Shown piece after piece: positions 9,297 through 50,812 of a stretch of DNA of 64,000 bases. Every line of letters begins with the position of its first letter. Within the stretch, counting starts at the first letter, position 1. The notes beneath the pieces are model-generated. The model did not search any database, was not told the DNA's origin, and saw only the letters and a list, made by a program, of their open reading frames with translations. The DNA comes from a virus: IMG/VR virus record IMGVR_UViG_3300044837_000077, positions 3,314 through 67,313 of that record; one strand, given 5' to 3'. The translations under genes and the position numbers were made by a program.

Positions 9297-9688
9297 GTCG
9301 GTGGGACGACGATGACACGCGGGCACAACCAGTCACGCCTATCGTCCGGGCTGTCCCGCTGAACCTGGTCACTTTTACTGCCGCCAAAGCGCAGCTCAAC
9401 GTCGACCACGATCTCGATGACGATATAATCAACGGAATGCGCACGCGCGCGTCAGGTTCCGTCATCAACTACTGTAAGATCGATGTCGGCGAGTCAGCGT
9501 TCAACTGGGTCGACCTGTTCGGTGAGCCGATCTCAGATAACGTCCCGCCGGAGGTCGCCGCGGCCGTGCTGCTCATGATCGGCGCCATGTACGAGAACCG
9601 TGACGGCGACGTATTCCGCTCACCCCAGCCTCTCTCGCAACCCGTGATGGACCTACTATGGCGCCACCGCGATCCGGCCATGGCGTGA
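9293..9688 (+). CDS. Head-tail connector (HK97 gp6-like)
   Basis: AKAQLNVDHD.DD..I, AAVLLMIG.MYENR, LL..HR. Confidence 0.9.
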   Translation: MSRWDDDDTRAQPVTPIVRAVPLNLVTFTAAKAQLNVDHDLDDDIINGMRTRASGSVINYCKIDVGESAFNWVDLFGEPISDNVPPEVAAAVLLMIGAMYENRDGDVFRSPQPLSQPVMDLLWRHRDPAMA

Positions 9689-18535: not shown

Positions 18536-21500
18536 ATGATCATACTTGCCGATACGACGTATGAGAAGTTTCCCGAGTGTCCCGGGTTTGGCTTCACGGT
18601 CGAACCCAGGTACCTGACGAAGGCCATCGAGCGCGAGGGCGGCCAGGAGCGCGTCGATCGACGATGGGATCGACCGTTGGCGTTCTTTACTGCCGTGCCG
18701 ACGAGCAACCGCGACGCTGACGTCATCCAGAATTTGCTCATCTTCTGGCACGCCGTCGGCGGGACTGCCGGGCACTTTAGGTTCACGGACTGGACCGACT
18801 ACAAGAGCTGTAAGACGAACGAGACGCCCACCGCATTGGATCAGCCTTTTGAGGTTGTCGGCGGCGCGTACCAGATGATCAAACGGTATACAGCCGGCCC
18901 GATGTCGCAGGATCGCGAGATTTATTGCCCTGTTGGCTCGACGATCGTCGTGGCTAATACTCTGGGCGCAGTGCAGACGGACTGGACGCTCGACGAGGCG
19001 ACGGGCCTGTTGACGCCGGGCGGCGGATTCGTCGGCACGCCAGGCTCGTGGGGTGGGGAATTCGACTTGCCTTGTAGGTTTCTGACGGACTACACGGTCA
19101 CCGTCGTTGACGGCAAGGACATTCAGAGCGGTTCGTTTACTTTGCGCGAGCGACGGCCGAATGAAGGCGGAAGCAGCGGCGGTGGTGGCGGTGGCGGTGG
19201 TGGCGGTGGTGGTGGTGGTGACGGTGGCGGTGGCGGTGGCGGTGGCGGTGGCGGTGGTAGCCCGAGTCTGCCGTTCACGATGCCCGATCTGGCGACATTG
19301 TTTGCATCGCCGAAAGTGGTGTTCGCGCACTACTTCTACACGTTCCCGCTATCTATCGACAACCGAGCGTCGGCGGTCGATTACTACAACGTCCAGTTAC
19401 TCACGATCGGTGGCGAGAGCGGCAGTCATGCGCTCTATGGTGGATACCTGCGACAACGACCACTGCCCGTGCCCATCGGTAGTCCTACGACGTTCAAACA
19501 GGACAACATGCAGACCGAGGTCGCGACGGCGATGGCGCGTGGCATCACGGCGTTCGCCATCGATATCCTGAACCTCGCCGATGCGCTAGACGCGAATGGC
19601 CACTTGCAACAACTGTTGTTAGCGGCGGCGGCCGTCGATAGCAGATTTAAGGTCATGGTCATGCTGGATATGTCCAATGGAAACTTGAGCAGCTTTGCTG
19701 ACGCGGCTTCTGTCATCCAGGCTGTTGCGACCTCGCCGGCGATATTTACATTGCCGACTGGCGAGATTCTGTTTTCCGCGTACCAAGCCGATGCGCAAAG
19801 CGTGTCGTGGTGGACGTCGATGATAGGGGTTTTGACGACCGCAGGTATCGCCACGAAGTTCATGCCGGTCTTGCTCGGTGGCGCGTCGGACGCCGGCTCG
19901 CTTGACCCTGTCAGCTACGCTGTCGGCGCCTGGGGCACGGCGATTGTGTCCGCAGCCACGAGTCTCGTCACAGCGCCGGCGACCGCGCACGGTAACGGTC
20001 TCAAATACATGCTGCCCATCCTGCCGCAGCAGTTCCGGCCGAAGGATCAGAAATACTGGGAAGCCGGCAACAGTCAGACGTTCCGCGCATCATGGAAGTC
20101 GGCGATCGATGGTGACTCGGATTATGTACAGGTTGTGACGTGGAGTGATTTCTCCGAGTCTGGGCAGGTCGAGCCGTGCACGGATGCGACGCTCAACCTC
20201 AACATCGGTACCGGGTTCTACGATCTCAACGCGTATTTTGCCGCGTGGTATCTGACAGGCACAGCGCCGACCATTACTGAGGATCGGTTGTACTGGTTCC
20301 ATCGCCGCATGCCGCTCAATGCAGCTCATCCTGATCAGGTTGACAACTTCACCTGTGAAGGCGGTACGCCGTCCGATCTCATCGAGGTGGTGGCGTTCCT
20401 GACCGCACCAGGAACGGTGACGATCAGCGTGGGCACGACATCGGCGTCGTTCGCCGCGTTAGCCGGAGTGAGCTCGCACACGCTGCCGCTCGCGGCCGGC
20501 ATACCGGTATTCAGTCTTACCCGCAGTGGGACGACGGTGATCTCACAGTCGGGACCGATGCAGATTTACGGCTCGGGTGGTGATCCTACGGGAACGCTCG
20601 ACTTCACCTACTGGAGCGGGAGCGTATCGGGCGTTGCAGGCGGTGGGATTGGTGGGGGTGGAGGCGGCGGAGGCGTCGCAACGCCGGTGTTCAACTTCGC
20701 GAACTTCTCTGGTGCTCCCAGCACGATCGCGCTTTCTGGCAATGCTATTTTTAGCGGCGCTGACATTAGGCTGCTCAACGTTTCTCAGCACGATTCGTGC
20801 AGTGCGTGGTACACGACAAAGCAAGCGCCAGCCGCATTCACGACGCAATTTACGTTTACACCCACCGGGATCACCAACACCCCGGCACAAGCAGGCATCA
20901 CGTTCTGCATCCAGAACACTACGTTTCCACCAGGAGCATCGGGTGCTGTAGGGCTCACTTATCGCGGCGATGCGAACATGTGCGGATATGGGGGAGCGAA
21001 CAACCAAAACCCGCCAGTCGATGCGATTGCCATCAAATTCGACGCGAGCAGCATCAGCAATCAGGGCTATCCGGCCGGTGGAGTCCCTGCCTCAACGGGC
21101 CTGTATTTAAACGGCGGCCCCAACATTATTCCGGGCGGCAATCTCGGATTGGTGCCGTACAACGATTTAAGCCACACCGGGATTAACTTCTATAGTGGCC
21201 ATACCTTTGCGGTCACTATCGTCTATGACGGTAGTTTGATCACGATGGTGATTCGGGACACCACGACGGGCGCTCAGGCGCGCAACGTGTGGCCGCTGAA
21301 TCTCGCCAACACCACGAACCCTTCAGGAAACTTTGTAGGCTTCACCTGTGGAACGGCTACGACCGGTGACGGGACATGGGTACTGGATAGTTGGGCCTAT
21401 TGGACGGGCTTCAACACGCGCCTCGCGACGCCCGCGCTGAGCCCAGTGCCTGGATCATATTCAGGCACGCAAGGCGTCTCGATCAGCGGCCCTTCCGGCG

Positions 21501-22339
21501 CATCGCTGTATTACACGACGGATGGAACGCTGCCGACCAGTTCATCGACTCAGTACACTGGAACGCCGATCTCTATAGCGGCAAACCAAGTCATCCAGGT
21601 TGTCGCGATCGAATCGGGCTTCACGGATAGCTTAGTCGGGGGCGGCAACTACCAGATCAGCACGTCGAACCGGATCAATTTCCCGAGCGGATTCTCTGCG
21701 GGTAACTTAATCACGGGCGGCTTCGCCTACCTGAGTGGGTCTGCCTATCGCGTTAGCGATACCACCACCAACACCGTCGGCGCTGTTTGGTTTCCTGCGC
21801 CGGTTCCGGTTTCGTCTTTCTCAACGGCCTTCACGCTGCAATGGGGATCGTCGGGGCAAGGCATGGGATTTGTCCTTCAGAACAGTCCTCAAGCCTATGC
21901 CAGCTTGAGCAACGCAATGAATGTGCCGGGTGGACCGACAGTGGTTGGCCAAAGTGGCGGCTCTGCGGGTTACGGGGGAGTGAACAATTCTGCCGGCATG
22001 CTCAATAGCATCGCGCTATTTTTCAATCAATGGGCGGGTGGTTCTGATCCTGGTAACAGCGTCGGCCTTTATACCGCTGGCGCTTTCCCGACCGGGAATC
22101 AAATTGCTACCGCACTCACTTTCAGCAGCGGTCACGCCTTCAATTGCGTGCTGACTTACAGCGGGACGACGCTCACGCTGTCCATGACGGACGCCACGAC
22201 CAGCGCTAACTTCACGCATAGCTGGACGGTGAACATTCCGTCCGCTGTCGGTGCAAGCACTGCCTATGCGGGTTTCGTGGGCGGCACCGGTGGCGCAGCT
22301 TCGATTGCGTCACTCATCAAGTGGACATATGCAGCTTAA
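18536..22339 (+). CDS. Dit copy 2 fused to GH71-like glycoside hydrolase, L-type lectin, Fn3-associated domain and second L-type lectin
   Basis: First ~210 aa nearly match Dit copy 1; poly-Gly linker; KVVFAHYF, GITAFAID, VQVVTWSDFSES (GH71-like); lectin motifs FTTQFTF..GITF.IQN..AIKFD..VGFT.GT; YYTTDGTLPT. Confidence 0.82.
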   Translation: MIILADTTYEKFPECPGFGFTVEPRYLTKAIEREGGQERVDRRWDRPLAFFTAVPTSNRDADVIQNLLIFWHAVGGTAGHFRFTDWTDYKSCKTNETPTALDQPFEVVGGAYQMIKRYTAGPMSQDREIYCPVGSTIVVANTLGAVQTDWTLDEATGLLTPGGGFVGTPGSWGGEFDLPCRFLTDYTVTVVDGKDIQSGSFTLRERRPNEGGSSGGGGGGGGGGGGGGDGGGGGGGGGGGGSPSLPFTMPDLATLFASPKVVFAHYFYTFPLSIDNRASAVDYYNVQLLTIGGESGSHALYGGYLRQRPLPVPIGSPTTFKQDNMQTEVATAMARGITAFAIDILNLADALDANGHLQQLLLAAAAVDSRFKVMVMLDMSNGNLSSFADAASVIQAVATSPAIFTLPTGEILFSAYQADAQSVSWWTSMIGVLTTAGIATKFMPVLLGGASDAGSLDPVSYAVGAWGTAIVSAATSLVTAPATAHGNGLKYMLPILPQQFRPKDQKYWEAGNSQTFRASWKSAIDGDSDYVQVVTWSDFSESGQVEPCTDATLNLNIGTGFYDLNAYFAAWYLTGTAPTITEDRLYWFHRRMPLNAAHPDQVDNFTCEGGTPSDLIEVVAFLTAPGTVTISVGTTSASFAALAGVSSHTLPLAAGIPVFSLTRSGTTVISQSGPMQIYGSGGDPTGTLDFTYWSGSVSGVAGGGIGGGGGGGGVATPVFNFANFSGAPSTIALSGNAIFSGADIRLLNVSQHDSCSAWYTTKQAPAAFTTQFTFTPTGITNTPAQAGITFCIQNTTFPPGASGAVGLTYRGDANMCGYGGANNQNPPVDAIAIKFDASSISNQGYPAGGVPASTGLYLNGGPNIIPGGNLGLVPYNDLSHTGINFYSGHTFAVTIVYDGSLITMVIRDTTTGAQARNVWPLNLANTTNPSGNFVGFTCGTATTGDGTWVLDSWAYWTGFNTRLATPALSPVPGSYSGTQGVSISGPSGASLYYTTDGTLPTSSSTQYTGTPISIAANQVIQVVAIESGFTDSLVGGGNYQISTSNRINFPSGFSAGNLITGGFAYLSGSAYRVSDTTTNTVGAVWFPAPVPVSSFSTAFTLQWGSSGQGMGFVLQNSPQAYASLSNAMNVPGGPTVVGQSGGSAGYGGVNNSAGMLNSIALFFNQWAGGSDPGNSVGLYTAGAFPTGNQIATALTFSSGHAFNCVLTYSGTTLTLSMTDATTSANFTHSWTVNIPSAVGASTAYAGFVGGTGGAASIASLIKWTYAA
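19178..19260 (+). repeat. GGY microsatellite encoding poly-Gly linker
   Basis: Run of GGT/GGC codons. Confidence 0.9.
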
Positions 22340-32912: not shown

Positions 32913-33091
32913 AAGAAACGCGCGCCAGATCGCTCCATTACGGCAATATGTATTACCTGGGTACGGTCGAGGTCGAACGCTGGCACGCCGCGATCGCCAC
33001 CATCTGCGCTGCGCGCCTCGTGGCCGAGCGGCGACGCATCTATGTCCGCTTGCCAGAGCCACGTCCCACGGCAATGCAATTGGCGGTGTAG
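32909..33091 (+). CDS. Hypothetical protein
   Basis: GTGA-coupled ORF only. Confidence 0.4.
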   Translation: MKETRARSLHYGNMYYLGTVEVERWHAAIATICAARLVAERRRIYVRLPEPRPTAMQLAV

Positions 33092-33094
33092 CCC

Positions 33095-33373
33095 GTGCTC
33101 GTGCATTTGGATCGCGATCTTGAATTGGATTTTATTCGCGAGTTTGCGGTATGCGGCGAGATGTTCGGCGGCCTGAGCGCCGATGACCGGCGCGAACGGA
33201 TCCGAGTCGCGATCTTCACCCACAAACTCGCGCACGCGCCGTTCAGGGATACCGGCATGAACTACGCCTCGGCGTACCAAAAATGCTACGGGCGCCCGAT
33301 TGAAATGCGTCGCACGCCGCGCAGTGCGCCGCAGCATGTCGCCGTGCCGTCGGAGGAAGACGACAATGAGTAG
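33095..33373 (+). CDS. Hypothetical protein, paralog of 61588-61857
   Basis: DDRRERIR.AI...NYA.A....YG.P shared. Confidence 0.7.
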   Translation: MLVHLDRDLELDFIREFAVCGEMFGGLSADDRRERIRVAIFTHKLAHAPFRDTGMNYASAYQKCYGRPIEMRRTPRSAPQHVAVPSEEDDNE

Positions 33374-33514
33374 CGCGGCATGCCCGATAGACGGAATAAC
33401 GGAGGCGGATGCAGAGTCTGCTGTCGATGCAGCCGTCATTTCAACAGGTCGATCATTACACGCTGCTCGCATACGCCAGAGCGGAACTCAAGCTCCTGCG
33501 CGCCGAGACTCGCG

Positions 33515-33700
33515 ATGAGCGATTGGTTCGACTACCAAGCCAAGAAGACCGCGCCAAAGCCATCCCGCAAGCGCAAGCCTCCGGCTAAGCCCACGCAAGA
33601 ATACACACCGAAGGATAACGAGTCGGGGATGAAGGTCGAGGAAGCGGACAGCAGTCCGTCGATGATCCAGCGCATTTTCGGTAAGAGGCAGGACTGGTAA
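33515..33700 (+). CDS. Hypothetical basic protein
   Basis: ATG ORF with phage-like codon use; last gene of late strand. Confidence 0.5.
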   Translation: MSDWFDYQAKKTAPKPSRKRKPPAKPTQEYTPKDNESGMKVEEADSSPSMIQRIFGKRQDW

Positions 33701-33807
33701 AGGCCCAATCTCGATGCGCGGTTTCTTCGTCTTCTTTTACCGCGTGTCGGGCCCTTCGGCCCCGCGGTCCTCAACTGGAGGCGGGGCTGCTTTTTGCGTC
33801 TCCCCGA

Positions 33808-34524
33808 CTAGCGATAATGTTCGCGTATCCATGCATGCTTAATTTTCACTGCGTCCGACCAAGGATCCGAATGGCCGTGCATGATTACGATCTTCGCTCT
33901 AGAGGGAAGTATCCCGCTTGGCATGATCTCGTTTCGGTACGAGTAGACGCCCTCGAGCATCGTGAACCTGGCCTCATCAGGTCCCAGGCACGCACCGATC
34001 CAGGCCTGATCCGATCCGATGTAGCGTAGCTTTCTCGCCATCGCGGGCGATGTCTTAGGGTCGAACTTCTCCCAAAGCTGCGTCCGCGTACCGGCACGGT
34101 GATAGATCAGCGAGCCGTTGTACGGCGTGCCGCGCGCGGTGTCCCCATAGATCTTGAAGTCCAGGTCGGTCTCGAAGAGATCGGTAATCTCCCGGCATAT
34201 GACGACGTCTAGGTCGATCGAACAGATGCGAGGTCCGAACTGTGCAGCCGCCTCGCGGGAGAACATCTTCAGGCGCCGGTAACAGGATGGATATGCCTGA
34301 CCGTGCGGCGAGAGTACGTTGGCGTGGTCGCTCCACAACTCGATCGTACGCACGGCGGGAACTATGCCTCGCGGATCGTCCGTGACGCAGACGAGTTCGA
34401 AAGGTTTCAGGTAGTGTCGCGTCAGCATAGAGTGCAGCACGTTCACTGTGGCTGCGTCGAATTTCGAGCGGTAGCCGGAAGGCGGTTTCCATTTGAAGCA
34501 CACGAAGACCAGATGCTGGCTCAC
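33808..34524 (-). CDS. Glycosyltransferase, GT-A fold
   Basis: VCFKW, VCVTDD, IDLDVVI (DxD), YNGS, SDQAWI, HG..DPW. Confidence 0.8.
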   Translation of the reverse strand: MSQHLVFVCFKWKPPSGYRSKFDAATVNVLHSMLTRHYLKPFELVCVTDDPRGIVPAVRTIELWSDHANVLSPHGQAYPSCYRRLKMFSREAAAQFGPRICSIDLDVVICREITDLFETDLDFKIYGDTARGTPYNGSLIYHRAGTRTQLWEKFDPKTSPAMARKLRYIGSDQAWIGACLGPDEARFTMLEGVYSYRNEIMPSGILPSRAKIVIMHGHSDPWSDAVKIKHAWIREHYR

Positions 34525-35252
34525 GGGTAGATCCTGCGATACGGGAACGACAGGGCGAGCGGTTTCCAGTTCTTGACGCCCGCACGCTCGGCCTTGACGC
34601 GTCGGATGCCGACCTTGTCCTCCGGCTGCTTTCGCAGATAGTGGGTCGTGGATGCATCGGCTTGAGTCTCGCGCGGCACGCGAACGAGGTGCTCTGGAAG
34701 CGTGATGAAGTCTGTGCAGACGTCGCGCAGACGGTCTCGAAAGTCGGCATCGGTCCCATAGAAGCCGGCGAAGCGCTCGTCGTAACCGCCGGTGCGCCAG
34801 TACATCTGCTTGGTCACGCCCCACGAGTTCGGGTGGGGTTTATAGGGCGTCGTCTCGATCAGTCCGTCCTGCGTGCGCTCGAGGGTGGTGCGCGCAAACC
34901 GATAGACGTAGTCCTTTCGAAGTTTGTGCATGACCAGGCGCGCGACGGTGTCCTGCGGGATCAGATGATCGATGTCGGTCAGCAGCAGCCAGGGCGTCTC
35001 AGCGTGATGTGCCGCGATGTTGCGGGCGGCGTCCTGGTTCCAGCGCACATCGACACCGATCTTGAAGATGGCCAGCGGGCAGCCGATGTCCCACCCCTTG
35101 GCATCGCCGTCCGGCGAGCCGTCGTCCACCACAATCACGGCTATTCTGGACAGCACATCATGGCTCATTGATCTGATACGCTCGAACTGCAGTTCGAGTT
35201 GGCCGGCGTTGCGATAATAAGGCAGACAGATCGTCAGGGTTCGCTTTGCCAT
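34521..35252 (-). CDS. Glycosyltransferase, GT2/GT7-like
   Basis: PYY, VVDDGS, WNQDAARN, LTDID, GGYDERFAG.YG.D. Confidence 0.85.
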   Translation of the reverse strand: MAKRTLTICLPYYRNAGQLELQFERIRSMSHDVLSRIAVIVVDDGSPDGDAKGWDIGCPLAIFKIGVDVRWNQDAARNIAAHHAETPWLLLTDIDHLIPQDTVARLVMHKLRKDYVYRFARTTLERTQDGLIETTPYKPHPNSWGVTKQMYWRTGGYDERFAGFYGTDADFRDRLRDVCTDFITLPEHLVRVPRETQADASTTHYLRKQPEDKVGIRRVKAERAGVKNWKPLALSFPYRRIYP

Positions 35253-35854
35253 GCTGTCTTCAGGCCTTCTCGGTCGATCTTGTTGAAACACCGGACGCTC
35301 GACGCGCCGTACATCCACACCTCGATGCCGGCGCTGCGCAGCTGCGTCGCGGCGGTATCGTACTGCTTCGACCACTCGGCGATCTTGGCGGGCTTCGAGC
35401 CGCCGCCGTTCTTCCAGGCGTAGTCTGGGAACCAATGTCGTTCGCCTTTAGGGCCCGGCCGGGAGTCCAGGCCGACGAGGTAGAGACGGCGCGGGCGCAG
35501 CAGGTAGGCTAAATTTAGGGCGCAGAAGCCGGAGTGGGTGCCGTTGAGCGTGTCCGGCGTGACTGATAGCGTCGTCGAGGTGTGATCGCAGTCGAACGCG
35601 GTCACGCGAGGCACGTCCTGCCATCTGACGATATTGCGCAGCGTCGAGCGCCGTAGCCATAGCGACTTGCCAAACTTCACGACCCGCGCGAAACGAGCCT
35701 CGACCCACATCCGGTCCATGCTGACGACGAAGTCAACGCGAGGTGCGTAGATTGCCGCGTCGTTCACCGCGATGACCTTACCCGGCAGCCAGTGCAGGTC
35801 AACGCCCGACGCCGACCAGCCGCCCGCCAGGAGCGTGATCGCGCTCGCGCTCAC
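35234..35854 (-). CDS. GT29/MptE-like Rossmann protein, paralog of 9688-10422
   Basis: LAGGWS, VIAVND, HSGFCALNLAYL, LYLVGLD, HWF. Confidence 0.72.
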   Translation of the reverse strand: MSASAITLLAGGWSASGVDLHWLPGKVIAVNDAAIYAPRVDFVVSMDRMWVEARFARVVKFGKSLWLRRSTLRNIVRWQDVPRVTAFDCDHTSTTLSVTPDTLNGTHSGFCALNLAYLLRPRRLYLVGLDSRPGPKGERHWFPDYAWKNGGGSKPAKIAEWSKQYDTAATQLRSAGIEVWMYGASSVRCFNKIDREGLKTAWQSEP

Positions 35855-36474
35855 GCGCGAAACCAGAAGGTGCTGAACTTCGGACCGTGGTAAATCACGC
35901 GCGCCTGGGCGAACGTGCGCTCGAGTAAATGCGCCCACTCTGGACGATCGCGTCGCACATCGACGATCAATTGCGTCTGTCCGCGGATGACACAGCCGAT
36001 AACTAAGTCGAGATAGGTTTCGGGCGGGTAGTGAAAGCACCAGCTCTTGAGGGAGATCACCAGATCGAAAAAGCTCGGCGCTGTCGGGTGCACATGCCCG
36101 GCGTCGATCGAGCGCACGTCGCGCACGCCATTGAGGTGTAGAAAATCGCGCGCGACGTCGAAATTCGAGAATGTTTGCGAGTGCCGCACCATCCGAGGCT
36201 CGTCGTGCGTCCCGTCGAGCAGCGTGACCGAGCAATCGCCACCATAATGATGATTGAGCAGCACATTGATACCACCCATTCCGCCGCCGATGTCCAAGAT
36301 GGCGTCGCACTGCTCAGGCAGATACGGCTCGAAGCACGCAAATTCGCTTGCCAGCATGTCGGCGTAACGTCCGCACCAGATCGCGGGATCATCCTTCATG
36401 TCATCGATCGCGCCTCGCTGGGCCACCAGATATGGGTACACGGTCTCGGATATCACGAGCGATGGCGGGCTCAT
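35851..36474 (-). CDS. Class I SAM-dependent methyltransferase
   Basis: ILDIGGGMGG motif I; FDLVIS..SWCFHYP. Confidence 0.85.
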   Translation of the reverse strand: MSPPSLVISETVYPYLVAQRGAIDDMKDDPAIWCGRYADMLASEFACFEPYLPEQCDAILDIGGGMGGINVLLNHHYGGDCSVTLLDGTHDEPRMVRHSQTFSNFDVARDFLHLNGVRDVRSIDAGHVHPTAPSFFDLVISLKSWCFHYPPETYLDLVIGCVIRGQTQLIVDVRRDRPEWAHLLERTFAQARVIYHGPKFSTFWFRA

Positions 36475-37655
36475 TTCACCGCCCAGATATTCACGTTCTT
36501 CTTGACTTCGCTACGCGCGATCGTCCAGCCGACGTTTTTCAGCTTTTCAATCCATTGATCGGGACTTAAAAGGCAAATATGCGCATTGCGCCCGTCGGGG
36601 AGTACGGCGCGAGCGGGCTTAACGCTGATCGAGAAGTACGCCCCCTTGCCGGTCAGCCGCCAGATGTGGTCGAGCACGGCGTCGAGCTTCTCCGGTTCAA
36701 CGTGTTCGAGGACGTCTGAGCAGACCAAGAGATCGCACGGCTTGGGCATCCCGGCCCGGTCGGGGATGCCGGGATCGTAGCCCGAGACGCGGCGCGGCGG
36801 ACTGCGCTTCGCCATCGCGTCGCTGAGCGTGTTTCTGCCGCAGCCGTAATCGAGGATAGTCTTCGCATCGAGCTCGGCCGAGTACGCATCCACGGCTTCG
36901 ACGTGCGTCGCGCCATCTGTGCCCCATCGCGTGCTGGCGTGCAGCGTGGTGATCTGCGCCCTATAATCGGTGCTCGTCAGGTCGTCGAGCGAATACCGGT
37001 ACGCCCCAGCGTGGCGCATGAACATGCCAATGTGCCCGAGATCGAGCGCGTGGATGCCCTTCTTCGACAGCCGCCAGGCGAGCACCGTTGCGGCGGCGCC
37101 CAGGCATAGCAGGACACGCGCGCTCGTCTTGCCGATCTCTTCCTCGATGCGGTCGATCTCGGCGTAAGCGTGCTGACGCGGGCCGGTCACCTCTCGCACC
37201 GACTTCGCTTGATCGCCGATCATCTCCGTCGTGATCGATTTCTTGTCGCCAACGACAAGGACGACGTCCTGATCTCGCCACAGCGCCCAGACGCCCTCCC
37301 AGTAGGCCGGCGTATCGATCCACGGCGCATTGTCCGGCCGCGTGATGAAGCTAGACCAGTAGGCACGCTTGTCCTGCGCAAGCAGCGACGCGAACTTGGG
37401 CTCCGTGTACTTGATCCAACTCTCGCGCCGGGGCGCGTCCGGGTGAAACGGGTTCGGTATGCCGACCATGCACCCGTCGTCTTCGGCCTGGAGGACCGTC
37501 TGCAGCTCGCGTGCGAGTTTCGGATCCGGCCGCTGGCTGGTGCAGCCGCCGCCCACGGCGCAGCGCCACTCGCCGTCGCCAAATCTGGCGATCGACTTGA
37601 CCGAGCAGTTGGCGAGCGTCGCCTCTTCGCTCATGATCTGTGGATATCGCTTCAT
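36471..37655 (-). CDS. GT-D-fold (DUF1792) glycosyltransferase fused to SAM methyltransferase
   Basis: SIARFGDGE and LG.AATVLA..L...G..ALDLGH (GT-D); ILDYGCG, YDP, CSDVLEHV (methyltransferase). Confidence 0.85.
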   Translation of the reverse strand: MKRYPQIMSEEATLANCSVKSIARFGDGEWRCAVGGGCTSQRPDPKLARELQTVLQAEDDGCMVGIPNPFHPDAPRRESWIKYTEPKFASLLAQDKRAYWSSFITRPDNAPWIDTPAYWEGVWALWRDQDVVLVVGDKKSITTEMIGDQAKSVREVTGPRQHAYAEIDRIEEEIGKTSARVLLCLGAAATVLAWRLSKKGIHALDLGHIGMFMRHAGAYRYSLDDLTSTDYRAQITTLHASTRWGTDGATHVEAVDAYSAELDAKTILDYGCGRNTLSDAMAKRSPPRRVSGYDPGIPDRAGMPKPCDLLVCSDVLEHVEPEKLDAVLDHIWRLTGKGAYFSISVKPARAVLPDGRNAHICLLSPDQWIEKLKNVGWTIARSEVKKNVNIWAVK

Positions 37656-37852
37656 CAGGTTGTGTCCGTCAGGATGACAAGCAGGGCGAGATGGCAGAAG
37701 CGTCGTACCTCATCCTCGTCAGGCGGCGGTTTGAGCGTTCCCTTCTTCCACGCCACGTAGCGTTCGATGTCCTGGCGCCCGAAACCCCAGGCGTCGAGCT
37801 CGTCGACGTGGCACGTCAGGGCGTAGTCGATCGGCGGTCTGGGGAGCGTCAC
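37655..37852 (-). CDS. Hypothetical protein
   Basis: Coupled to neighbours on both sides. Confidence 0.55.
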   Translation of the reverse strand: MTLPRPPIDYALTCHVDELDAWGFGRQDIERYVAWKKGTLKPPPDEDEVRRFCHLALLVILTDTT

Positions 37853-38004
37853 GATCGTTTGACGACCCGCCGGGACAACGGATCGCGCACTGTCACCGGC
37901 ATCTGCTTGCCCGGAGTCAGCCTATTCGAAAGGGCGGCTCGCTTGTGTTTCGGTTTTGATTTCTGTTTCGCGGCCATCGTGTGTCCTCGTGGGGTGAGAT
38001 TCAT
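37849..38004 (-). CDS. Small basic hypothetical protein
   Basis: ATGA/GTGA coupling. Confidence 0.45.
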   Translation of the reverse strand: MNLTPRGHTMAAKQKSKPKHKRAALSNRLTPGKQMPVTVRDPLSRRVVKRS

Positions 38005-38402
38005 AGCGACTTCTTCAGCAATCCATCGATGTCCGGCGGTGCCGGCGGCGGCATGTAGGCATGCGCCGCCAGGAACCGGGCAGCGTCGTCCCACAACGCG
38101 TCATGAGCCGCGTCGTCGGACTGGATCGTGACAGCCTGGTAGCGGACCAACAGGTTGATCGCCTCGGTCAGTCTCTGCAGCGTAGGATTAGCCTGGTCGG
38201 TCGGTTGACTGGTCGTCTCTCCCGTGAATGCCGCCGCCTCGTCGACCTCGGCCTGCGAGCAGTGCAGGATCTGCGCGGCCGCGGCTAGGAAGTCGCCCTC
38301 GCGCTCTTGGCTGTCGCCGTAGATCGTGATCTCGGTCAGGCCGGCGACGGTGAACAGCGGGTTGTCCTGCCGGAGTTTCACCATCCTCTCTTTGAGCGTC
38401 AC
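38001..38402 (-). CDS. Hypothetical protein, probable first gene of the GT operon
   Basis: GGAG RBS upstream; high GC3. Confidence 0.65.
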   Translation of the reverse strand: MTLKERMVKLRQDNPLFTVAGLTEITIYGDSQEREGDFLAAAAQILHCSQAEVDEAAAFTGETTSQPTDQANPTLQRLTEAINLLVRYQAVTIQSDDAAHDALWDDAARFLAAHAYMPPPAPPDIDGLLKKSL

Positions 38403-38496
38403 GTCGTCTTCTCCCGTGCACCATCGCTGTGTCCGGTTAGTGCTATGGAATAGCAGAAAGTGACCGTGAGTTTAGTAGCTAACGCAGCCGCTAGAT

Positions 38497-38682
38497 TTAC
38501 AGAAGAGTTAGCCCTAACCAGGCGAGAACGCCGAGCGCAATGGCGACGAGCCACAGGTCCCAACGGAATATGAGACGTCGCGACACTTTCGCGTCGCTGG
38601 TGCATTGAGGGCATGCCGTCGCTTCGGCGCTGAGGTCGCCGCCGCATTCCTTGCATTTGAGCACCGCGACTCTCCCTGTCAT
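38497..38682 (-). CDS. Zn-ribbon membrane protein
   Basis: CKECG..LS.EA.ACPQC plus C-terminal TM. Confidence 0.65.
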   Translation of the reverse strand: MTGRVAVLKCKECGGDLSAEATACPQCTSDAKVSRRLIFRWDLWLVAIALGVLAWLGLTLL

Positions 38683-38753
38683 TGCGATGCGGCACTGTAG
38701 TCGAGACGCGAGTCAGGGTGTCCATGCTTTGACTTAAGGGTGGGCTAAAAAGC

Positions 38754-38972
38754 TTTGGAATATTACGAACATAGTTCCATGTGGAACAACGGCTTACCTG
38801 ATCGCCAGCTCCAAAAATATTCCAAACCGCGACACCATCATTCGTCAGCCAATTCAGCAGCTTACGCGCGAGAGAACGCCTCCCTACGAACCAGGAGGCC
38901 GGGAGTTCGAATCTCTCCGGGCGCACCATATTTCGCTCACCCGTTTGGAATATTTTCATATCTTTGGAATAT
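38754..38972. repeat. Four TTTGGAATAT arm-type repeats around attP
   Basis: Copies at 38754(+), 38817-38826(-), 38944(+), 38963(+). Confidence 0.8.
38884..38928 (+). other. attP: attP core = 3' half of tRNA-Arg(ACG)
   Basis: CTACGAA anticodon loop, GTTCGAATC T-loop, acceptor 3' strand and CCA; no matching 5' half; about 240 bp from integrase stop. Confidence 0.88.
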
Positions 38973-39171
38973 CCGAACCTAGTTCCCGCTCGATGTCCTC
39001 GATGATTGTCGGGTCACTCAGAGCGCCGTTCCGTTCATCGGAGGCCGCCTCCGCCCAGCGCAAATCTGGAAGCGCCCGTCGCAATAGCTCCCGCAACCGC
39101 GTGTAAGCTTCCGCCTCGACGTAGTCCCAGAACGGCTCAGTATCTTTGCCTTTGACAAATGGATCTTCCAT
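38956..39171 (-). CDS. Hypothetical protein downstream of int
   Basis: TAATG coupling to integrase. Confidence 0.5.
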   Translation of the reverse strand: MEDPFVKGKDTEPFWDYVEAEAYTRLRELLRRALPDLRWAEAASDERNGALSDPTIIEDIERELGSDIPKI

Positions 39172-40157
39172 TAGGACCTCGGCTTCGCCTTCGTAACCCC
39201 TCTCCGATAGAACCGCCGCGTGGTCGCGACGTCCCTATGCCCCAGCCGATCGCGCGCCTCCTCGTCCGTTTCCGCTCCGTCCGCCGACACGCTACGCAGG
39301 TCGTGGAACGTGAACCACACGCCACCGGCCTTCATGTGCTTGATCATGACGCGCCGCCAGATCTGATAGAACCCCGATGAGCTGTACGGCTTGCCTTTGC
39401 GCGTGCGTATCAAGTAGTCGCCCGGGATCTGCGGCGCCATCGCCTTCAGCTCCGCGACGACCGCCTCGAGGTCCGGGCTCCATTCGATCAGCACCCGCGC
39501 GCCGCCTTTCCCCTGCTGGATATAGATCCCCTCGGCCGTCAGATGTTCACGCCTGACTTTCAGCAGATCCCCTTTGCGCTGGCCGATTGCCACCGCGAGA
39601 TCGATCGCAGCCCGCATGCGCCCATTCGCCAGCTTCTTGACCGCCGCGACCTGCTCCATCGTGACCTGCGCGCGTTTCGGGCTGCGCGGCCCCAGGTCAA
39701 GGCCTAGCGCCGGATTCCTCGACGCCTTGCCCCAGCGGTTTGCCTTAGCGAACAAGTGCCGCAGGAGTTCAACTTCGTGTCGTGCGGCGACCGGGACTAG
39801 CTCGCCATCCTCCGAGCGCCTACCGTCCTGATAGGCGTAGCACATCTGCGCCGTGATGTTGTCGGGCAGCATGGCCCCGAAGGCGACTTTCAGCCGGTCG
39901 AGCTGCTTACCCTGGTCGCGGCGGGTGGACTTGGAGCGTTTGAGTGGCAGCACCTCAGTCCGATACCGGTCTATCACATCGCCCAAGGTGTTGCCGGTCC
40001 AGGTATTGCCAATGAGGCCGGCGTATTGGGACAGAGCGGCGGCAAGATCGTGGCCGAGATTGACCGGTTTGCCGATCTTCGGCCGAAAGTAATAGGAGCC
40101 GTGAACCAGGTAGACGCGCCGCGGGAGATGATTATCCTGCTTTCTTTTTCGTCCCAT
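39171..40157 (-). CDS. int: Tyrosine integrase
   Basis: GQRKGDL (R), Q.K, FHDLR, LGH, FY catalytic residues; adjacent to attP. Confidence 0.93.
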   Translation of the reverse strand: MGRKRKQDNHLPRRVYLVHGSYYFRPKIGKPVNLGHDLAAALSQYAGLIGNTWTGNTLGDVIDRYRTEVLPLKRSKSTRRDQGKQLDRLKVAFGAMLPDNITAQMCYAYQDGRRSEDGELVPVAARHEVELLRHLFAKANRWGKASRNPALGLDLGPRSPKRAQVTMEQVAAVKKLANGRMRAAIDLAVAIGQRKGDLLKVRREHLTAEGIYIQQGKGGARVLIEWSPDLEAVVAELKAMAPQIPGDYLIRTRKGKPYSSSGFYQIWRRVMIKHMKAGGVWFTFHDLRSVSADGAETDEEARDRLGHRDVATTRRFYRRGVTKAKPRS

Positions 40158-40362
40158 TGATCGCATCCCAGTCGAAATTGGGTTCTTGGATGCCTGCGGC
40201 CTTCCCGCCCACCATGTGCCGATTGAACTCATCTAGGGCGACGATCGGCTCTCCGAGGGCGTTCACGGTAAACCGCCAGCCGTGCCGACGCAACCAGCGC
40301 GCCTGGGCGGAGGCTCGGACGTAGCCGGTCAGAGCCTTGACGTCGGAGCGGGGCATGATCAC
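40132..40362 (-). CDS. DUF4224-like excisionase/RDF candidate
   Basis: LTGY.R.SAQ.RWL...GW.F..N..G.P.V, EPNFD; directly upstream of int. Confidence 0.8.
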   Translation of the reverse strand: MIMPRSDVKALTGYVRASAQARWLRRHGWRFTVNALGEPIVALDEFNRHMVGGKAAGIQEPNFDWDAINGTKKKAG

Positions 40363-40514
40363 TTCCCCGTCTCCTTCGCTACCCGCTTCTCCTCCTCCAT
40401 CTCCCCGCCACACGCGCATCGCTGATTATTGCGTAACGCACGAGTGAGGCCGGAGATCTTGCGGCGGCATTTGACGCAGACCAGGATGACGCTCGCGGCT
40501 TTGTTGTCAGCCAT
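40359..40514 (-). CDS. Small Zn-finger protein
   Basis: CVKC...CACGG. Confidence 0.5.
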   Translation of the reverse strand: MADNKAASVILVCVKCRRKISGLTRALRNNQRCACGGEMEEEKRVAKETGK

Positions 40515-40725
40515 GGTCGGCGCCGGCATCATCGAGTTCAGTGGCAACTAAGGGAACGTCGCGCCATTCGGCTTCGCGCGGAACATCTCTCAAGTAAAGT
40601 TGTTGCAATATCTTGTGCCCGTTCTCCTCAATGAATCGTAGCGGTGCCGCGGCATACCATTCCTGTCCCCACGCGCCGCCGTCTAAACTGATGCGTCGCT
40701 TGCCCTTGCGGGTTCGAGCGCTCAT
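40507..40725 (-). CDS. Hypothetical protein
   Basis: LRF...KILQQ...EWRDVP, a common small phage ORF motif; GGAG RBS. Confidence 0.65.
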   Translation of the reverse strand: MSARTRKGKRRISLDGGAWGQEWYAAAPLRFIEENGHKILQQLYLRDVPREAEWRDVPLVATELDDAGADHG

Positions 40726-40753
40726 TTAGGCTCCGCGGGCGGAATAATGGGGC

Positions 40754-40930
40754 ATGGCCAAGAAGGTCGACCTCATCGAGCGCTTCCGTCGACACGTCGA
40801 GTACAGCCAGAAGCGCGATACGTACGCCCGCCGCGCGATCGAGCTGCTCGACCAGGGCGAAGACAAAGCCGGGATGCGGGCCGCAGCGAAGGCGGAACTT
40901 TGGGACCTCAAGGCGAAGTCCCTGGAGTGA
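40754..40930 (+). CDS. 58-aa counter-oriented helical protein (not in ORF track)
   Basis: My translation MAKKVDLIERFRRHVEYSQKRDTYARRAIELLDQGEDKAGMRAAAKAELWDLKAKSLE*; strong GC3; fills the gap between minus-strand genes. Confidence 0.65.
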   Translation: MAKKVDLIERFRRHVEYSQKRDTYARRAIELLDQGEDKAGMRAAAKAELWDLKAKSLE

Positions 40931-41162
40931 CCGCTGCGGCCTTGGGAGTAGCCCAATAGCGATTTTCTTCTTGGGTCGGTGCATCGACCGGCCTTTCCTC
41001 CGTGTCGTAACACACTTCGCCGTGGTCGCCAGTTCCGACCCGTCCGTCTCGCGTGAGCCACACATGCTCTATGCCGGTTCGTAGGTGGCCGTCCCATAAA
41101 TGGAGCACTTCGGCGTCCGCCGGCATATTCTGCAAACGTTCGATTAGTTCGGATACCTTCAT
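40908..41162 (-). CDS. Hypothetical protein
   Basis: MKV.ELIE.L..MP.DAEV start typical of small phage ORFs. Confidence 0.65.
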   Translation of the reverse strand: MKVSELIERLQNMPADAEVLHLWDGHLRTGIEHVWLTRDGRVGTGDHGEVCYDTEERPVDAPTQEENRYWATPKAAAVTPGTSP

Positions 41163-44188: not shown

Positions 44189-44947
44189 TCACGCGAAGCA
44201 CCCGCAACCGCCGATGTCGAACATGTCGACTTGTTCGCCGGCCTCGATGCGCAATCGCAATGTCCGCATGGTTAGCGGCTTCTTTTTGCCATCGCCTGTG
44301 CGGTCGGTCATCATCGATACGTCTTTGCCTAGATAGGCGCGTAGCGATTGTTCTTCGGCTTCGTGCTCGGCGTAAAGCGTCGGCTTCGTCCGAAGCAGGT
44401 TAGCGAATTGCCCCTGCCCAGCTTTGCAGCAAAAACCGCCGCAATTGTTGTGCGAGAATCCTTCCGCATATAACCGTGGCGGCGCGATCCCTTCGGCCTT
44501 GAGTTCTCGCAGCATGTCGGTTTTCAGGATGAACGGCGCCTCACAGAGCGGCGCCTTGTACGTCCATCCGTCTTTCGCTCGAAGGTCACGCAGCCGTTTG
44601 AACCGATGTTCCTCGGTCCAGTCGATTCCAACGTAGATCGTCGTATCGGCCGGGTCACAGTTGGTTGAAAACCAACTGTCAGCTGGCTTGCGCTTGAGGA
44701 TCGCCGAGCAGGGGTCGCGGCGGGAGTTACCCAGGAACCGACGATCCCGGTACACCTGCCACGGCGTGCGCCCCTCAGCGATGCGCACCAGGTCGCCGCC
44801 GACGTTCGCAGCGGCTTCCTCAAGGAAGCGATATAGGTCGGCATCCTCAATCAAGGTATCGGTGAACAGCAGCGTTTTTGGGTTGGGCACGCGCCGTGCC
44901 GCAGCCCATGAGCCAATACCACCGCTGAACATGACGACGTGTTTCAT
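44189..44947 (-). CDS. PAPS-reductase-like / PP-loop protein with Cys cluster
   Basis: FSGGIGSW PP-loop, DT..ED.DLYRF, CS..LK, HNNCGGFC, GGCGCF. Confidence 0.8.
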   Translation of the reverse strand: MKHVVMFSGGIGSWAAARRVPNPKTLLFTDTLIEDADLYRFLEEAAANVGGDLVRIAEGRTPWQVYRDRRFLGNSRRDPCSAILKRKPADSWFSTNCDPADTTIYVGIDWTEEHRFKRLRDLRAKDGWTYKAPLCEAPFILKTDMLRELKAEGIAPPRLYAEGFSHNNCGGFCCKAGQGQFANLLRTKPTLYAEHEAEEQSLRAYLGKDVSMMTDRTGDGKKKPLTMRTLRLRIEAGEQVDMFDIGGCGCFA

Positions 44948-45162
44948 CTGAGCGGTTCGACTTTCCGCCGCGCTCTGTCGTATACGCGCCGCGTCATCTT
45001 GATATCGATATGCCCCGCAAGCAGGTAGGCCGAATCCAGGCTCAGGTTGTCGGAGATCGACTTCGCCCTGAGATCATGGAAATGGAAGCGCGCGTTCCCG
45101 GCCTTCTCCCATGTCCTGCAATAGCGCTGCCACATAGCCCGGAAGCCGTCAGGGCTACTCAT
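44944..45162 (-). pseudogene. C-terminal fragment of a second tyrosine integrase
   Basis: GF..MWQR, FHFHDLRAK, AGH.D..MTRRVY; aligns by eye with the end of int. Confidence 0.75.
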
Positions 45163-45640
45163 CTGGGTGTCTCCTATCCCGATAGTCGCGTCCATACTTT
45201 ATGCTCCGCGCACGTCGTTCTTCCTTTTTAGCCTCGCTGCGTCTCGGCATTGGTACCCCGAAATGGAGATGCAGCAACGTGGCGCTGGAGACCTTGAGGC
45301 GCTCCATCCAGACCTTCATCGGCGCAGTCTCGCCGTCGATGGTTATAAGTCGTGTCCGTCGCGTGTTGCACGCCTGTTCTTGCTTCGTGGCCCAGCGGCA
45401 ATTGGACGGCTCATAATTGCCGTTGTTATTGATCCTCTCAAGTGTATGCGCTGGCGTAGGCTTCGGCCCCATATCAGCCACGAAGGTGGCAAAGCTCGCC
45501 CAGCGTTCGCACACCTTGATACCTCTGGCACCATACCGAAAATAGCTTTCATCTCTAGGATTGTTGCAGCGATCTCGCATGCTGCACCATGTGGAGTAAA
45601 GAGGCTTGCCGCGGTTCTTGTTCGGGTAAGAGCGCTTCAT
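45155..45640 (-). CDS. HNH-type endonuclease
   Basis: W.SM..RC.NP, YGARGIKVCERW, LERINNNGNYEPSNCRWAT. Confidence 0.85.
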   Translation of the reverse strand: MKRSYPNKNRGKPLYSTWCSMRDRCNNPRDESYFRYGARGIKVCERWASFATFVADMGPKPTPAHTLERINNNGNYEPSNCRWATKQEQACNTRRTRLITIDGETAPMKVWMERLKVSSATLLHLHFGVPMPRRSEAKKEERRARSIKYGRDYRDRRHPDE

Positions 45641-45795
45641 TTGCGCGTCTCTCGCCATGCCGCTAGATCGTCCACCGGCGCCCACAGATGGCCATTCGGC
45701 GAATAGCAGATCGGCGTCGAAAGCTCCCCCTGAGTTTCCTTCAATTCGTCGGCTTCCGCCTCGTCCGTAACCTCCGTCCATTTTTCCTTGACCAT
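45637..45795 (-). CDS. 52-aa acidic protein (not in ORF track)
   Basis: MVKEKWTEVTDEAEADELKETQGELSTPICYSPNGHLWAPVDDLAAWRETRK*; AAGGGG RBS; ATGA-coupled to HNH. Confidence 0.55.
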   Translation of the reverse strand: MVKEKWTEVTDEAEADELKETQGELSTPICYSPNGHLWAPVDDLAAWRETRK

Positions 45796-45929
45796 TGAAA
45801 TCCCCTTGTTTCAAAGAGGATTCCAATATTAATGACGAATCAGCTCCGAAAATTCCAGAGGTGAAGCATGGCGCAAATTGCGCCGATTTATCAAAGACTT
45901 GCGAGGCAACTATTTGCATTTTTTCTGCA

Positions 45930-46337
45930 TCACTTGAAAAACGAAGCATGGAATTCACTAGACTTTCCTCCCTCACTCGGTTCTGTCACGCCGACGCAAG
46001 CTAGAACGCGACGGTATTTCTCTGGCGTGTCGTGGCCGTCCCACGTCCCTTCGTATGCCGGTAACTTGCTGAACAGCCATGCTTGCGAATCATGGTAATG
46101 CCAAGACACCTGGCCTGTTGGCAGGTCGATGTACACGCACCCGTGCCAATCTGTCGACCAGCCTTCAATGGCCGTCCTAGCGGTTCCTGTGCGGTATCCC
46201 AACTCCAAAGCCGTGCGCGCCATGAACGCAACGCACTTATTGCGCTCAAGATATGCGCCGTCCTTTTCCTTTTTCATCACCAGCCACGCATCTAGCGCGA
46301 TGCCGGCGGCCGGATTGATTTCCCTGATATCGCTCAC
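45930..46337 (-). CDS. WDGH-motif phage protein
   Basis: YLERN, IDLPTGQVSWHY, WDGH. Confidence 0.75.
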   Translation of the reverse strand: MSDIREINPAAGIALDAWLVMKKEKDGAYLERNKCVAFMARTALELGYRTGTARTAIEGWSTDWHGCVYIDLPTGQVSWHYHDSQAWLFSKLPAYEGTWDGHDTPEKYRRVLACVGVTEPSEGGKSSEFHASFFK

Positions 46338-49885: not shown

Positions 49886-50212
49886 TCAGTCAGCCACGCG
49901 CACGAGTTCTTTCGGGGTGTACTCCACCTGCTGCGGGATGAGCCACTTCCCCGCCGGCACCCGCGCGGTGGAATGCTCTTCGTGCAAAAGGTCGGCCGGC
50001 ACCGAGACATCGAGATAGCGCGCTCCGCCGTGGGCCACGTAGAGCTTGATGCTCTGGGTTTGGTCTAAGAACTCGAAGCGGTGTTTGTGGCCGGTCACTT
50101 CCCCGTAAGCGAGAATGACTTCATTTTTAGACTCTTGTGCCACCGCATCACATGGAATCTTATCGATCGGAATCAGTAAAACATCGCCTTGCCGTATGGG
50201 AGATTTCTTCAT
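49886..50212 (-). CDS. RQGDV/HEEH protein (usual DUF6745 partner), in frame with upstream HNH
   Basis: RQGDVL, LAYGEVTGH.H, HEEH, Q.EY; own GAGG RBS. Confidence 0.75.
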   Translation of the reverse strand: MKKSPIRQGDVLLIPIDKIPCDAVAQESKNEVILAYGEVTGHKHRFEFLDQTQSIKLYVAHGGARYLDVSVPADLLHEEHSTARVPAGKWLIPQQVEYTPKELVRVAD

Positions 50213-50779
50213 GTCAATACCCTCAAAGCGCCATTGAAAACCGCCATGCCGTTTACGCTTCCCTAGGCAGCATGCGGATATATGTCGAAAACCGAGACCA
50301 GTGATTCTCGCGGCATCTGAGACGCCAGCAAAATACTTGCGGGTACCGTCGGAGGCTATTTGTACAACCGGCTTAGAATGCGGATTGTCAGCACCGAATT
50401 TTCCGAGCCATGGCTTAATGATCGCGTGCTTCACGCCGAGTACTCGGAATGCGTGTGTGACGTTCAGCGGGTCATTCGTCCATTCCAGATTCGCGGCTGT
50501 ATTATTGGCCTTAACACCGTCTTGGTGGTTTACGTCGGTTTTATCCTGGGGTGGCTCGCCATTGAACGCTCGACACACGAGCCGATGGAGTAACGCGTTA
50601 ACGTTCGTGCCGTCTCCGCGATACAAAACTACCGAAAAATAGCCGCCGGTATCTTCTCGCGCGGTGAGTATTCTCTCTCGATATACATAACGGCGCGGCA
50701 AACTCTTGACGCGTCCGAGATTGGATATTTCGTACATTCCTTCAAAACCAGGAATGGGTTTCCACCTCTCAATTCCCAT
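50213..50779 (-). CDS. NUMOD4-HNH-NUMOD1 homing endonuclease lacking its own stop codon
   Basis: WKPIPGFEG.YEISNLGRVKS, HRLV..AF, VNH.DG.K.NN...NLEW, SKPVVQ, ISACC.G...HGGF.W. Confidence 0.85.
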
Positions 50780-50812
50780 ATCGATATCTCCTGTTTGAAA
50801 TTCATTCATACG

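Follow-up and report, generated by a model that had tools for sequence, protein, structure and literature searches.

What does a phage modify with a set of soluble glycosyltransferases (GTs) and methyltransferases: its own particle, the surface of its host, its DNA or something else? The question is raised by a minus-strand operon (38402-33808) in a 64,000-nucleotide stretch of DNA of a temperate phage, referred to here as the window, which covers bases 3314-67313 of a 67,313-base IMG/VR virus record (IMGVR_UViG_3300044837_000077) classed as linear and estimated to be ~76% complete. The last five genes of the operon, A to E, form the cassette discussed below, and head, neck, tail and lysis genes occupy the plus strand from ~1100 to 33700. 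A sequence-only reading of the window had proposed that the operon glycosylates virion proteins. The enzyme assignments, the solubility of the enzymes and the genomic context of the cassette in related phages support that proposal, whereas solubility is compatible with a role in lipopolysaccharide (LPS) synthesis as well. Our results lean towards a phage-encoded cytoplasmic pathway that glycosylates virion proteins, analogous to those of the mycobacteriophages Corndog and Che8 and made up of unrelated enzymes. Two observations are new here: in related phages the cassette lies between the capsid and the adaptor/neck genes, and a second MptE-like gene, C2, is present in the head-tail module of the window.

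Position of the cassette in related phages

With protein A as the query, 17 viral contigs (47-67% identity) were recovered, along with one contig from a metagenome-assembled genome (MAG) and 17 metagenome contigs, the last mostly short or duplicates of IMG/VR loci. Eighteen related loci (L002-L019) were compared by tblastn, using the window proteins and the PHROG-annotated structural proteins of L003. In all 18, the genes for TerL, portal, protease and major capsid protein (MCP), usually a small open reading frame (ORF), and C2 precede A on one strand, and the order continues through B, C, D and E to the adaptor Ad1, head closure, tail completion, tail tube, chaperones and tape measure. The A-B-C-D-E series is complete in 12 of the 18; three loci that are near-identical to one another (L005, L007 and L017) have A-C-D-E with no detectable B, and the contigs of L011, L018 and L019 stop inside the cassette. 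Fifteen loci continue beyond E, and all of these but L012, 14 in number, have same-strand neck or tail genes of the L003 type 3′ of E; E abuts or overlaps Ad1 in all five loci in which Ad1 was detected. The neighbourhood survey that the sequence-only reading had called for thus places the cassette between capsid and adaptor/neck genes in every one of the 18 loci, and it does so as well in the Tetraselmis viridis virus described below, where the genes again share one strand and follow a C2 gene. Judged from these sequence comparisons, the shared position shows that the cassette has been maintained over the long term inside a late operon, with divergence down to ~45% identity. Because the cassette is found among head and tail genes in the relatives, a methylated glycan on the virion is the most likely product of its enzymes.

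Tetraselmis viridis virus S20 (TvV-S20) and SI1, which NCBI places in the Caudoviricetes (L020, NC_020840.1; HQ632857; HQ632858), have a variant of the cassette, flanked by the capsid gene on one side and the head-closure gene on the other. This variant encodes a GT-D, an MptE-like protein, a Methyltransf_23 protein, a GT2, an FkbM methyltransferase, an unknown protein and a homologue of E, and in TvV-S20 the GT-D and methyltransferase are separate genes with the MptE-like gene between them. The records name a green alga as the host, yet they carry TerS, TerL, a portal, an HK97-type capsid and a tape measure, and a bacterium that was present in the culture of the alga is probably their actual host. 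A metagenome contig (L036, 1-2282) has 2.3 kb of DNA 5′ of an A homologue of 44% identity; this upstream DNA has no match to C2, to the capsid or to the small ORFs of the window, and the contig may represent a third genomic context.

Genes of the C2 type match 69 of the 50,697 phage records searched by tblastn. In the Pseudomonas phage D3 the order is capsid, orf6.5, orf7 (the C2-type gene), Ad1 and head closure, with orf12 and orf13 further on; orf13 matches Methyltransf_23 at 6.6e-9, and the idea that orf12 is a GT9-like enzyme found no support in Pfam. The C2-type gene of the Pseudomonas phage PAJU2, ORF010, is located in the head-tail connector region as in D3. The Caulobacter phage CcrColossus, which we take to be a lytic phage, carries on one strand, after its tail genes and before its lysis genes, a C2-like gene, two unknown genes, an NDP-sugar transferase, a methyltransferase that shares 36% identity with the corresponding domain of A, and a GT9. 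In EBPR siphovirus 3, a homologue of E (38%) lies directly upstream of a portal gene whose product is 43% identical to the portal of the window. The recurrence of GT, methyltransferase and MptE-like genes in the late or structural regions of unrelated phages fits with virion modification and fits poorly with lysogenic conversion.

A precedent for such an arrangement comes from the mycobacteriophages. Corndog has, between the genes for its portal and its protease, an O-methyltransferase gene and three GT genes; the corresponding proteins (gp35-38) were detected in infected cells but were absent from virions, and a role in modifying the capsid was proposed for them (PMC4351075). Papers citing Freeman et al. 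2023 describe mycobacteriophage capsid and tail-tube subunits as bearing C-terminal glycans, and they report that the glycans impair recognition of the virion by antibodies (PMC12619734, PMC10877033, PMC12363180, PMC12691614). As far as this literature goes, glycans on phage particles have been demonstrated for actinobacteriophages only, where they are said to shield virions from antibodies. Our literature searches returned no report of virion glycans for phages of Gram-negative hosts, and the phiCbK genomics paper does not mention the genes discussed here.

The systems of Corndog (gp35-38), Che8 (gp110) and Myrna resemble the one found in the relatives of the window in that soluble GT and methyltransferase genes lie in a head module. 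Such genes are embedded in a structural operon in the 18 loci, in TvV-S20 and, in the case of C2, in the window, whereas A-E of the window are not. The systems differ in several further respects. The enzyme set here consists of a fusion of a GT-D with a methyltransferase, two MptE-like proteins, a GT2 and a GT8-like enzyme; the hosts would be Proteobacteria; and the main block in the window lies beside the putative phage attachment site (attP). In the same 50,697 records, no Mycobacterium phage is among the tblastn matches of E or D, and none appears among the matches or organism tallies listed for A or C2. On this sequence evidence, the present system is like that of the mycobacteriophages by position and composition and is not a member of it by homology.

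Architecture and enzymes of the operon

The minus strand from 38402 to 33808 contains eight ORFs that overlap start to stop, of which A-E are the last five. The sequence-only reading was right about translational coupling and too low in its count of five genes. The chain begins with u1 (38001-38402, 133 amino acids), whose stop overlaps the start of the basic 51-residue u2 (37849-38004) in an ATGA; u3 (37655-37852, 65 amino acids) overlaps u2 in a GTGA and shares one nucleotide with the start of A (36471-37655, 394 amino acids). B (35851-36474, 207 amino acids) overlaps A in an ATGA, C (35234-35854, 206 amino acids) overlaps B in a GTGA, D (34521-35252, 243 amino acids) overlaps C by 19 nucleotides and E (33808-34524, 238 amino acids) overlaps D in a GTGA. 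No family in Pfam, PHROGs or NCBIfam matched u1, u2 or u3, and no counterpart of u1 was found in the related loci. A scan of 33000-41000 for promoters and terminators found fewer sites than in shuffled sequences and none at the ends of the operon, and the folding of a hairpin 3′ of E is no better than in shuffles (z = -1.44).

None of the eight operon proteins has a membrane segment. The highest mean Kyte-Doolittle hydropathy over 19 residues is at most 1.43 across the set, in agreement with the sequence-only reading, and the scan is a crude hydropathy scan rather than a trained predictor. The same reading had stated that flippase and GtrA/B/C-type membrane genes are missing; consistent with this, no ORF of at least 80 amino acids in the 64-kb window reaches the four hydrophobic segments that we required of a polytopic membrane protein.

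Protein A is the fusion of a GT-D (DUF1792) domain and a methyltransferase that had been read from its sequence. Residues 22-210 match the Pfam GT-D family PF08759 (2.1e-29; 103.4 bits against a cut-off of 27) and the C-terminal domain matches Methyltransf_23, PF13489 (6.6e-10; 39.4 bits against 27). Among DUF1792 chains in the PDB, 5v4a (3.5e-18) and 4pfx (6.3e-18) were matched, the RFGDGE stretch of A being aligned to the GDGE of 5v4a. The residues D27-G28-E29 are invariant across 12 sequences, and the DXE motif of GT-D enzymes reportedly binds metal. The NCBIfam model glyco_access_1 matches at 1.4e-25, but its 90 bits fall far below the cut-off of 291. Database relatives of A number 777 at an E-value of at most 1e-10, and all of the 120 listed are GT-D-methyltransferase fusions except P0086, which has the GT-D part only; the top relatives are mostly on contigs of 43 kb or less, that is, of phage size, and P0005 (83%) and P0006 (79%) are nearest to A. 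In L015 (8775-11579) ~1.2 kb separates the match to A from B, and in L016 (10001-11607) there are two separate matches to A. Since the GT-D and methyltransferase parts lie apart in these two loci, the fusion is not universal.

Significant matches were not obtained for B, C and E in sequence-profile searches of the PDB, so fold searches were needed for these three proteins. B is a divergent class I S-adenosylmethionine (SAM) methyltransferase as judged from its motif I and its predicted structure. The Pfam match to Methyltransf_25 is below threshold (0.018) and the PDB profile search returned weak motif-I matches only (E-values of 0.097 or higher), but residues L60, D61, G63, G65 and G68 of motif I are invariant across 13 sequences, and the ESM Atlas model superimposes on class I methyltransferases with template modelling (TM) scores of 0.66-0.86. 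An hhalign comparison of B with the methyltransferase domain of A gave P=0.0034. The earlier assignment of B as a SAM methyltransferase is thus borne out by structural rather than sequence evidence. That of D as a GT2-type enzyme is supported by matches above cut-off to PF00535 (3e-8; 34.2 bits against 23.3) and PF10111 (4.8e-10; 39.8 bits against 27.3), and the translation shows DDGS and DID motifs.

C has no Pfam match, and its PDB sequence-profile search gave nothing significant. It belongs to phrog_4603 (1e-17), and its AlphaFold model has a predicted local distance difference test score (pLDDT) of 93. By TM score and probability, the best Foldseek matches in the PDB are the MptE HPPK structure 8sd5 (TM score 0.49, probability 1.0) and CstII, 1ro7 (TM score 0.53, probability 0.98), at weak E-values of 3e-3 to 1e-2; in BFVD there are 23 matches at an E-value of 0.001 or below, several of them named MptE-like or DUF115, with TM scores of 0.6-0.79. 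The earlier label of C as GT29/MptE-like therefore keeps its second half: the GT29 label is unsupported as such, and C looks MptE/CstII-like in its modelled fold. C2 (9658-10422, plus strand, 254 amino acids), which lies between Ad1 and a head-closure-like ORF, matches the same PHROG more strongly (2.7e-37), and its match to the Pfam MptE-like family PF01973 (1e-5, 25.8 bits) covers only the C-terminal 35 residues and is below the cut-off of 34.6. Folds and sequence, together with the C-terminal motif of PF01973, suggest a connection of C and C2 with the MptE-like/DUF115/CstII (GT42) group, with the differences that C2 is under the Pfam cut-off and that C reaches TM scores of only 0.49-0.53 to solved structures. 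The MptE/DUF115 superfamily includes the flagellin glycosyltransferases known as Maf, and C and C2 are much shorter than Maf proteins. In a maximum-likelihood tree the C and C2 types are split with 100/100 support. The C of the window falls inside the clade of cassette C proteins (99/99), and its C2 is a long branch in the part of the tree formed by the C2 type, where D3 orf7, PAJU2 ORF010 and CcrColossus gp126 are also placed; in tblastn, the C2 proteins of the window and of L003 are 32% identical. On the modelled structure C is a candidate nucleotide-sugar transferase, and the activity of C and C2 may be that of a transferase or that of a kinase.

E has no Pfam or NCBIfam family and a best PDB profile E-value of 0.69; it belongs to phrog_1962 (9.8e-12) and its AlphaFold model has a pLDDT of 88. 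The top Foldseek matches are glycogenin, LgtC and other GT8 enzymes, GlyE and Skp1 alpha-GalT (E-values ~1e-8, TM scores 0.57-0.62), and the structural matches also include WbbM. The D104-L105-D106 (DLD) motif is invariant across 14 sequences. On its model, E has the GT-A fold given by the sequence-only reading, together with a DXD motif, and is GT8-like by structure and not by sequence membership.

By type, these enzymes are closest to the elongation enzymes of streptococcal serine-rich-repeat glycosylation (DUF1792 and the GT8 enzyme GlyE). A matches dGT1/DUF1792 of the Fap1 pathway and E matches GlyE of the PsrP pathway (5gvv); both sets are soluble and both would act stepwise. Among the structural neighbours of E, glycogenin, GlyE and Skp1 GalT are enzymes that build glycans on proteins in the cytoplasm. 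To our knowledge, the phage set has no GtfA/GtfB-type initiating enzyme and none of the accessory Sec genes of the streptococcal pathway, and we know of no methyltransferase fusion or MptE-like gene that is part of that pathway.

Candidate acceptors and rival explanations

In the reading that we prefer, the soluble GTs (GT-D, GT2 and GT8-like), C together with C2, and the two SAM methyltransferase domains would act in the cytoplasm on nucleotide sugars and SAM supplied by the host. One or more structural proteins would receive a short O-methylated oligosaccharide, built up stepwise before the particle is assembled or while it is. The existence of the glycan, its presence on the virion, the sequence of the reactions, their donors and their acceptor are what we infer from the genes.

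The first candidate for an acceptor is the major capsid protein (4868-6427, plus strand; phrog_617, 1.5e-104), which corresponds to the capsid part of a protease-capsid fusion family. The capsids of all 18 cassette loci end in a short C-terminal tail such as GAFPAGSTT, GSFPSGSST or GSFPAGSSDTA; in phages that lack the cassette, capsids of this family terminate in TAPSAGGGA (mEp235), VAPPEAP (Rivra), SDNITSATAA (vB_MseS-P1), TPPAP (TC7) and LTAS (D3). With five controls and one lineage, a Ser/Thr tail as an acceptor motif linked to the cassette is suggestive and no more. Another candidate is the small protein encoded after the capsid gene (6511-6900, plus strand), which has a Ser/Thr/Pro-rich tail (a Ser plus Thr fraction of 0.26 over the last 87 residues) and shares position and architecture with a family of the relatives, 'sm112', to which hhalign relates it at P=0.022 only. 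We rejected it as a cassette-specific acceptor: the family also follows the capsid in mEp235, TC7, Rivra and vB_MseS-P1, whose records have no GT genes and one of which names the protein FI-like, and the length and composition of the tail differ weakly between phages with and without the cassette. Ser/Thr-rich virion proteins as the acceptor, as proposed earlier, are thus a guess.

Several points weigh against virion glycosylation. The 18 loci represent one phage lineage (TerL and MCP 40-74% identical), and their shared position is therefore largely inherited and does not amount to 18 independent events. In the window, A-E are outside the late operon: they occupy the other strand, converge with the lysis genes and adjoin the attP core and integrase, and the attP/integrase side is the classical place for lysogenic-conversion genes. 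The GT nature of C and C2 depends on a modest fold similarity and a sub-threshold Pfam match, and MptE itself is a kinase. The capsid Ser/Thr motif and the Ser/Thr/Pro-rich tail are weak leads with four or five controls only. The record of PAJU2 (L022, AP009624.1, 7780-8349) labels ORF010 a 'structural protein', and if that label is founded on virion proteomics this protein may travel with the particle. Finally, E resembles LgtC, a lipooligosaccharide (LOS) enzyme without a transmembrane segment, so that being soluble does not mean being unconnected with LPS.

The attP-adjacent operon and the likeness of E to LgtC make conversion of the host surface glycan the main rival explanation, and a serious one, although we consider it rather improbable. 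The enzymes would act at the cytoplasmic face on lipid-linked intermediates of LPS or LOS, O-antigen or exopolysaccharide. The altered surface would be either that of the lysogen, with superinfection exclusion or a change of serotype as the effect, or that of the infected cell, which would keep debris from capturing progeny. The gene order lysis genes, convergent minus-strand operon, attP core and integrase agrees with this, as gtr and other conversion loci adjoin attP in temperate phages; like gtrABC serotype-conversion loci, the operon is immediately beside attP, opposite the integrase (39171-40232, minus strand; a tyrosine integrase, PF00589 4.4e-11, phrog_1 2.1e-37). The attP core is probably a tRNA-like 3′ fragment (38866-38928, plus strand) consisting of an anticodon-loop-like CUACGAA, a T arm, the 3′ strand of the acceptor and CCA; it scores 14.4 bits with the Rfam tRNA model, under the threshold of 29, and ARAGORN found no complete tRNA in the window. 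Structural matches of E to LgtC and WbbM, which are LOS and O-antigen enzymes without membrane segments, point in the same direction, as do weak matches of D, far under the cut-offs, to the NCBIfam polysaccharide enzymes EpsD and TuaG. The G+C content of the operon is ~0.62, the same as in the flanking phage DNA, and offers nothing against long residence. Unlike gtrABC, however, the operon has five soluble enzymes in place of membrane proteins like the GtrA flippase, the bactoprenol glucosyltransferase GtrB and the polytopic transferase GtrC, and no membrane ORF resembling GtrA/B/C, a flippase or a polymerase was found in the window. The relatives keep the cassette inside a same-strand head-tail operon in every contig, C2 remains in the structural module of the window, and a similar gene set lies in the late region of CcrColossus, presumably a lytic phage, in which lysogenic conversion would make no sense.

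How a cassette for virion glycosylation could have come to lie beside attP may be seen from the head module of the window, which resembles that of PAJU2 (identities of 37-47% for capsid, portal, fibre and adaptor, with 47% for the capsid). This module would have had a C2 gene of its own, and the A-E block, from another lineage, would have been acquired or moved to the attP side without its C2, the resident C2 staying in the head-tail module.

Other acceptors, such as host flagellin or pilin, a phage protein that is not part of the virion, or a small molecule, are a slim prospect. C and C2 resemble the MptE/CstII/DUF115 group in structure, and the tail module has relatives in phages of Caulobacter and Brevundimonas, bacteria whose flagella and pili are often exploited by phages; a late-operon site beside the capsid gene would, however, be unexpected for modification of a host appendage. 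Least probable, and very unlikely in our view, is a role in evading host restriction through glycosylated and methylated bases in the phage DNA: DNA-hypermodifying phage GTs are known (Pyle et al. 2024, as cited in PMC12619734) and methyltransferase domains are present, but 10 early-region ORFs that were scanned include HNH endonucleases, exonuclease VIII, a PAPS-reductase-like protein and unknowns and no base-hydroxymethylating or hypermodification enzyme, the cassette of the relatives is flanked by the capsid and adaptor genes, the methyltransferases belong to the small-molecule or protein type (Methyltransf_23/25) and not to DNA methylase families, and the substrates of the nearest structural neighbours of A and E are proteins or glycans.

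The remainder of the phage, and a wider role for the MptE-like core

The plus-strand late region also encodes a head decoration-like protein, the portal, Ad1 (9209-9688), the head-closure-like ORF that follows C2 (10419-10799), a tail completion protein, a tape measure of 1731 amino acids, a phiJL001-gp84-like hub and, in the lysis region, a GH108 endolysin with a PG_binding_3 domain. A collagen-like fibre gene with G-x-y repeats (8328-9296) lies between the portal and the head-tail adaptor, and the C-terminal domain of its product is common to PAJU2 ORF007 and EBPR siphovirus 3. PAJU2 encodes the protease-capsid fusion in one ORF (ORF003); in the window it is divided across 2899-6427 (plus strand), where a protease-like part (2899-3930) is separated from the capsid part by an HNH endonuclease ORF (3432-4457; phrog_99, 1.1e-54) and a Gp77-like ORF of 127 amino acids (4460-4843), and this may be an insertion of the homing-endonuclease or intron type. 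Two further HNH endonuclease ORFs are found in the early region (45155-45976 and 49886-50809, minus strand), making three in this phage genome, and the early genes include that for the PAPS-reductase-like protein (44189-44947, minus strand; phrog_424, 2.2e-50).

A tail protein of 1267 amino acids (18536-22339, plus strand) combines a DUF2460 domain of the distal tail type of gene transfer agents with a GH71 alpha-1,3-glucanase domain, a chitobiase C-terminal domain and a legume-lectin domain, a combination suggestive of a host receptor or capsule that contains glucan. Similar tail modules are found in alphaproteobacterial phages and gene transfer agents (PhiJL001, Caulobacter, Rhodobacter, Brevundimonas), and the capsid resembles capsids of phages of Proteobacteria. 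From the relatives of its tail, capsid and endolysin, the host is probably Gram-negative and perhaps an alphaproteobacterium. One database relative is labelled Steroidobacteraceae; the 3.4-kb MAG contig labelled Polyangiaceae (L019) was set aside as a clue to the host because it is too short for trustworthy binning.

The distribution of C2-type genes also allows a broader proposal, which we put forward as tentative and somewhat doubtful. An MptE/CstII-like core enzyme in the head-tail modules of many proteobacterial siphoviruses, for example D3, PAJU2 and the phiCbK-like Caulobacter phages, would initiate or cap a glycan, possibly of an ulosonic or nonulosonic acid taken from a CMP-sugar, and cassettes of the A-E type would extend and O-methylate it on the short Ser/Thr-containing C-terminal tail of the capsid protein, which has the HK97 fold. 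In the window this extension block would work from its site beside attP. Virion glycosylation would then be widespread in phages of Gram-negative bacteria and would have been overlooked in them.

If virion glycosylation by these enzymes is correct, a surface property common to environmental, Pseudomonas and Caulobacter phages would come to light, with a bearing on immunogenicity in phage therapy, on particle stability and on adsorption. The question is directly testable because the cultured phages D3, PAJU2, CcrColossus and TvV-S20 carry reduced or full sets of the genes. Protein glyco-engineering would also gain new soluble glyco-enzymes, in the form of a GT-D-methyltransferase fusion family of at least 777 members.

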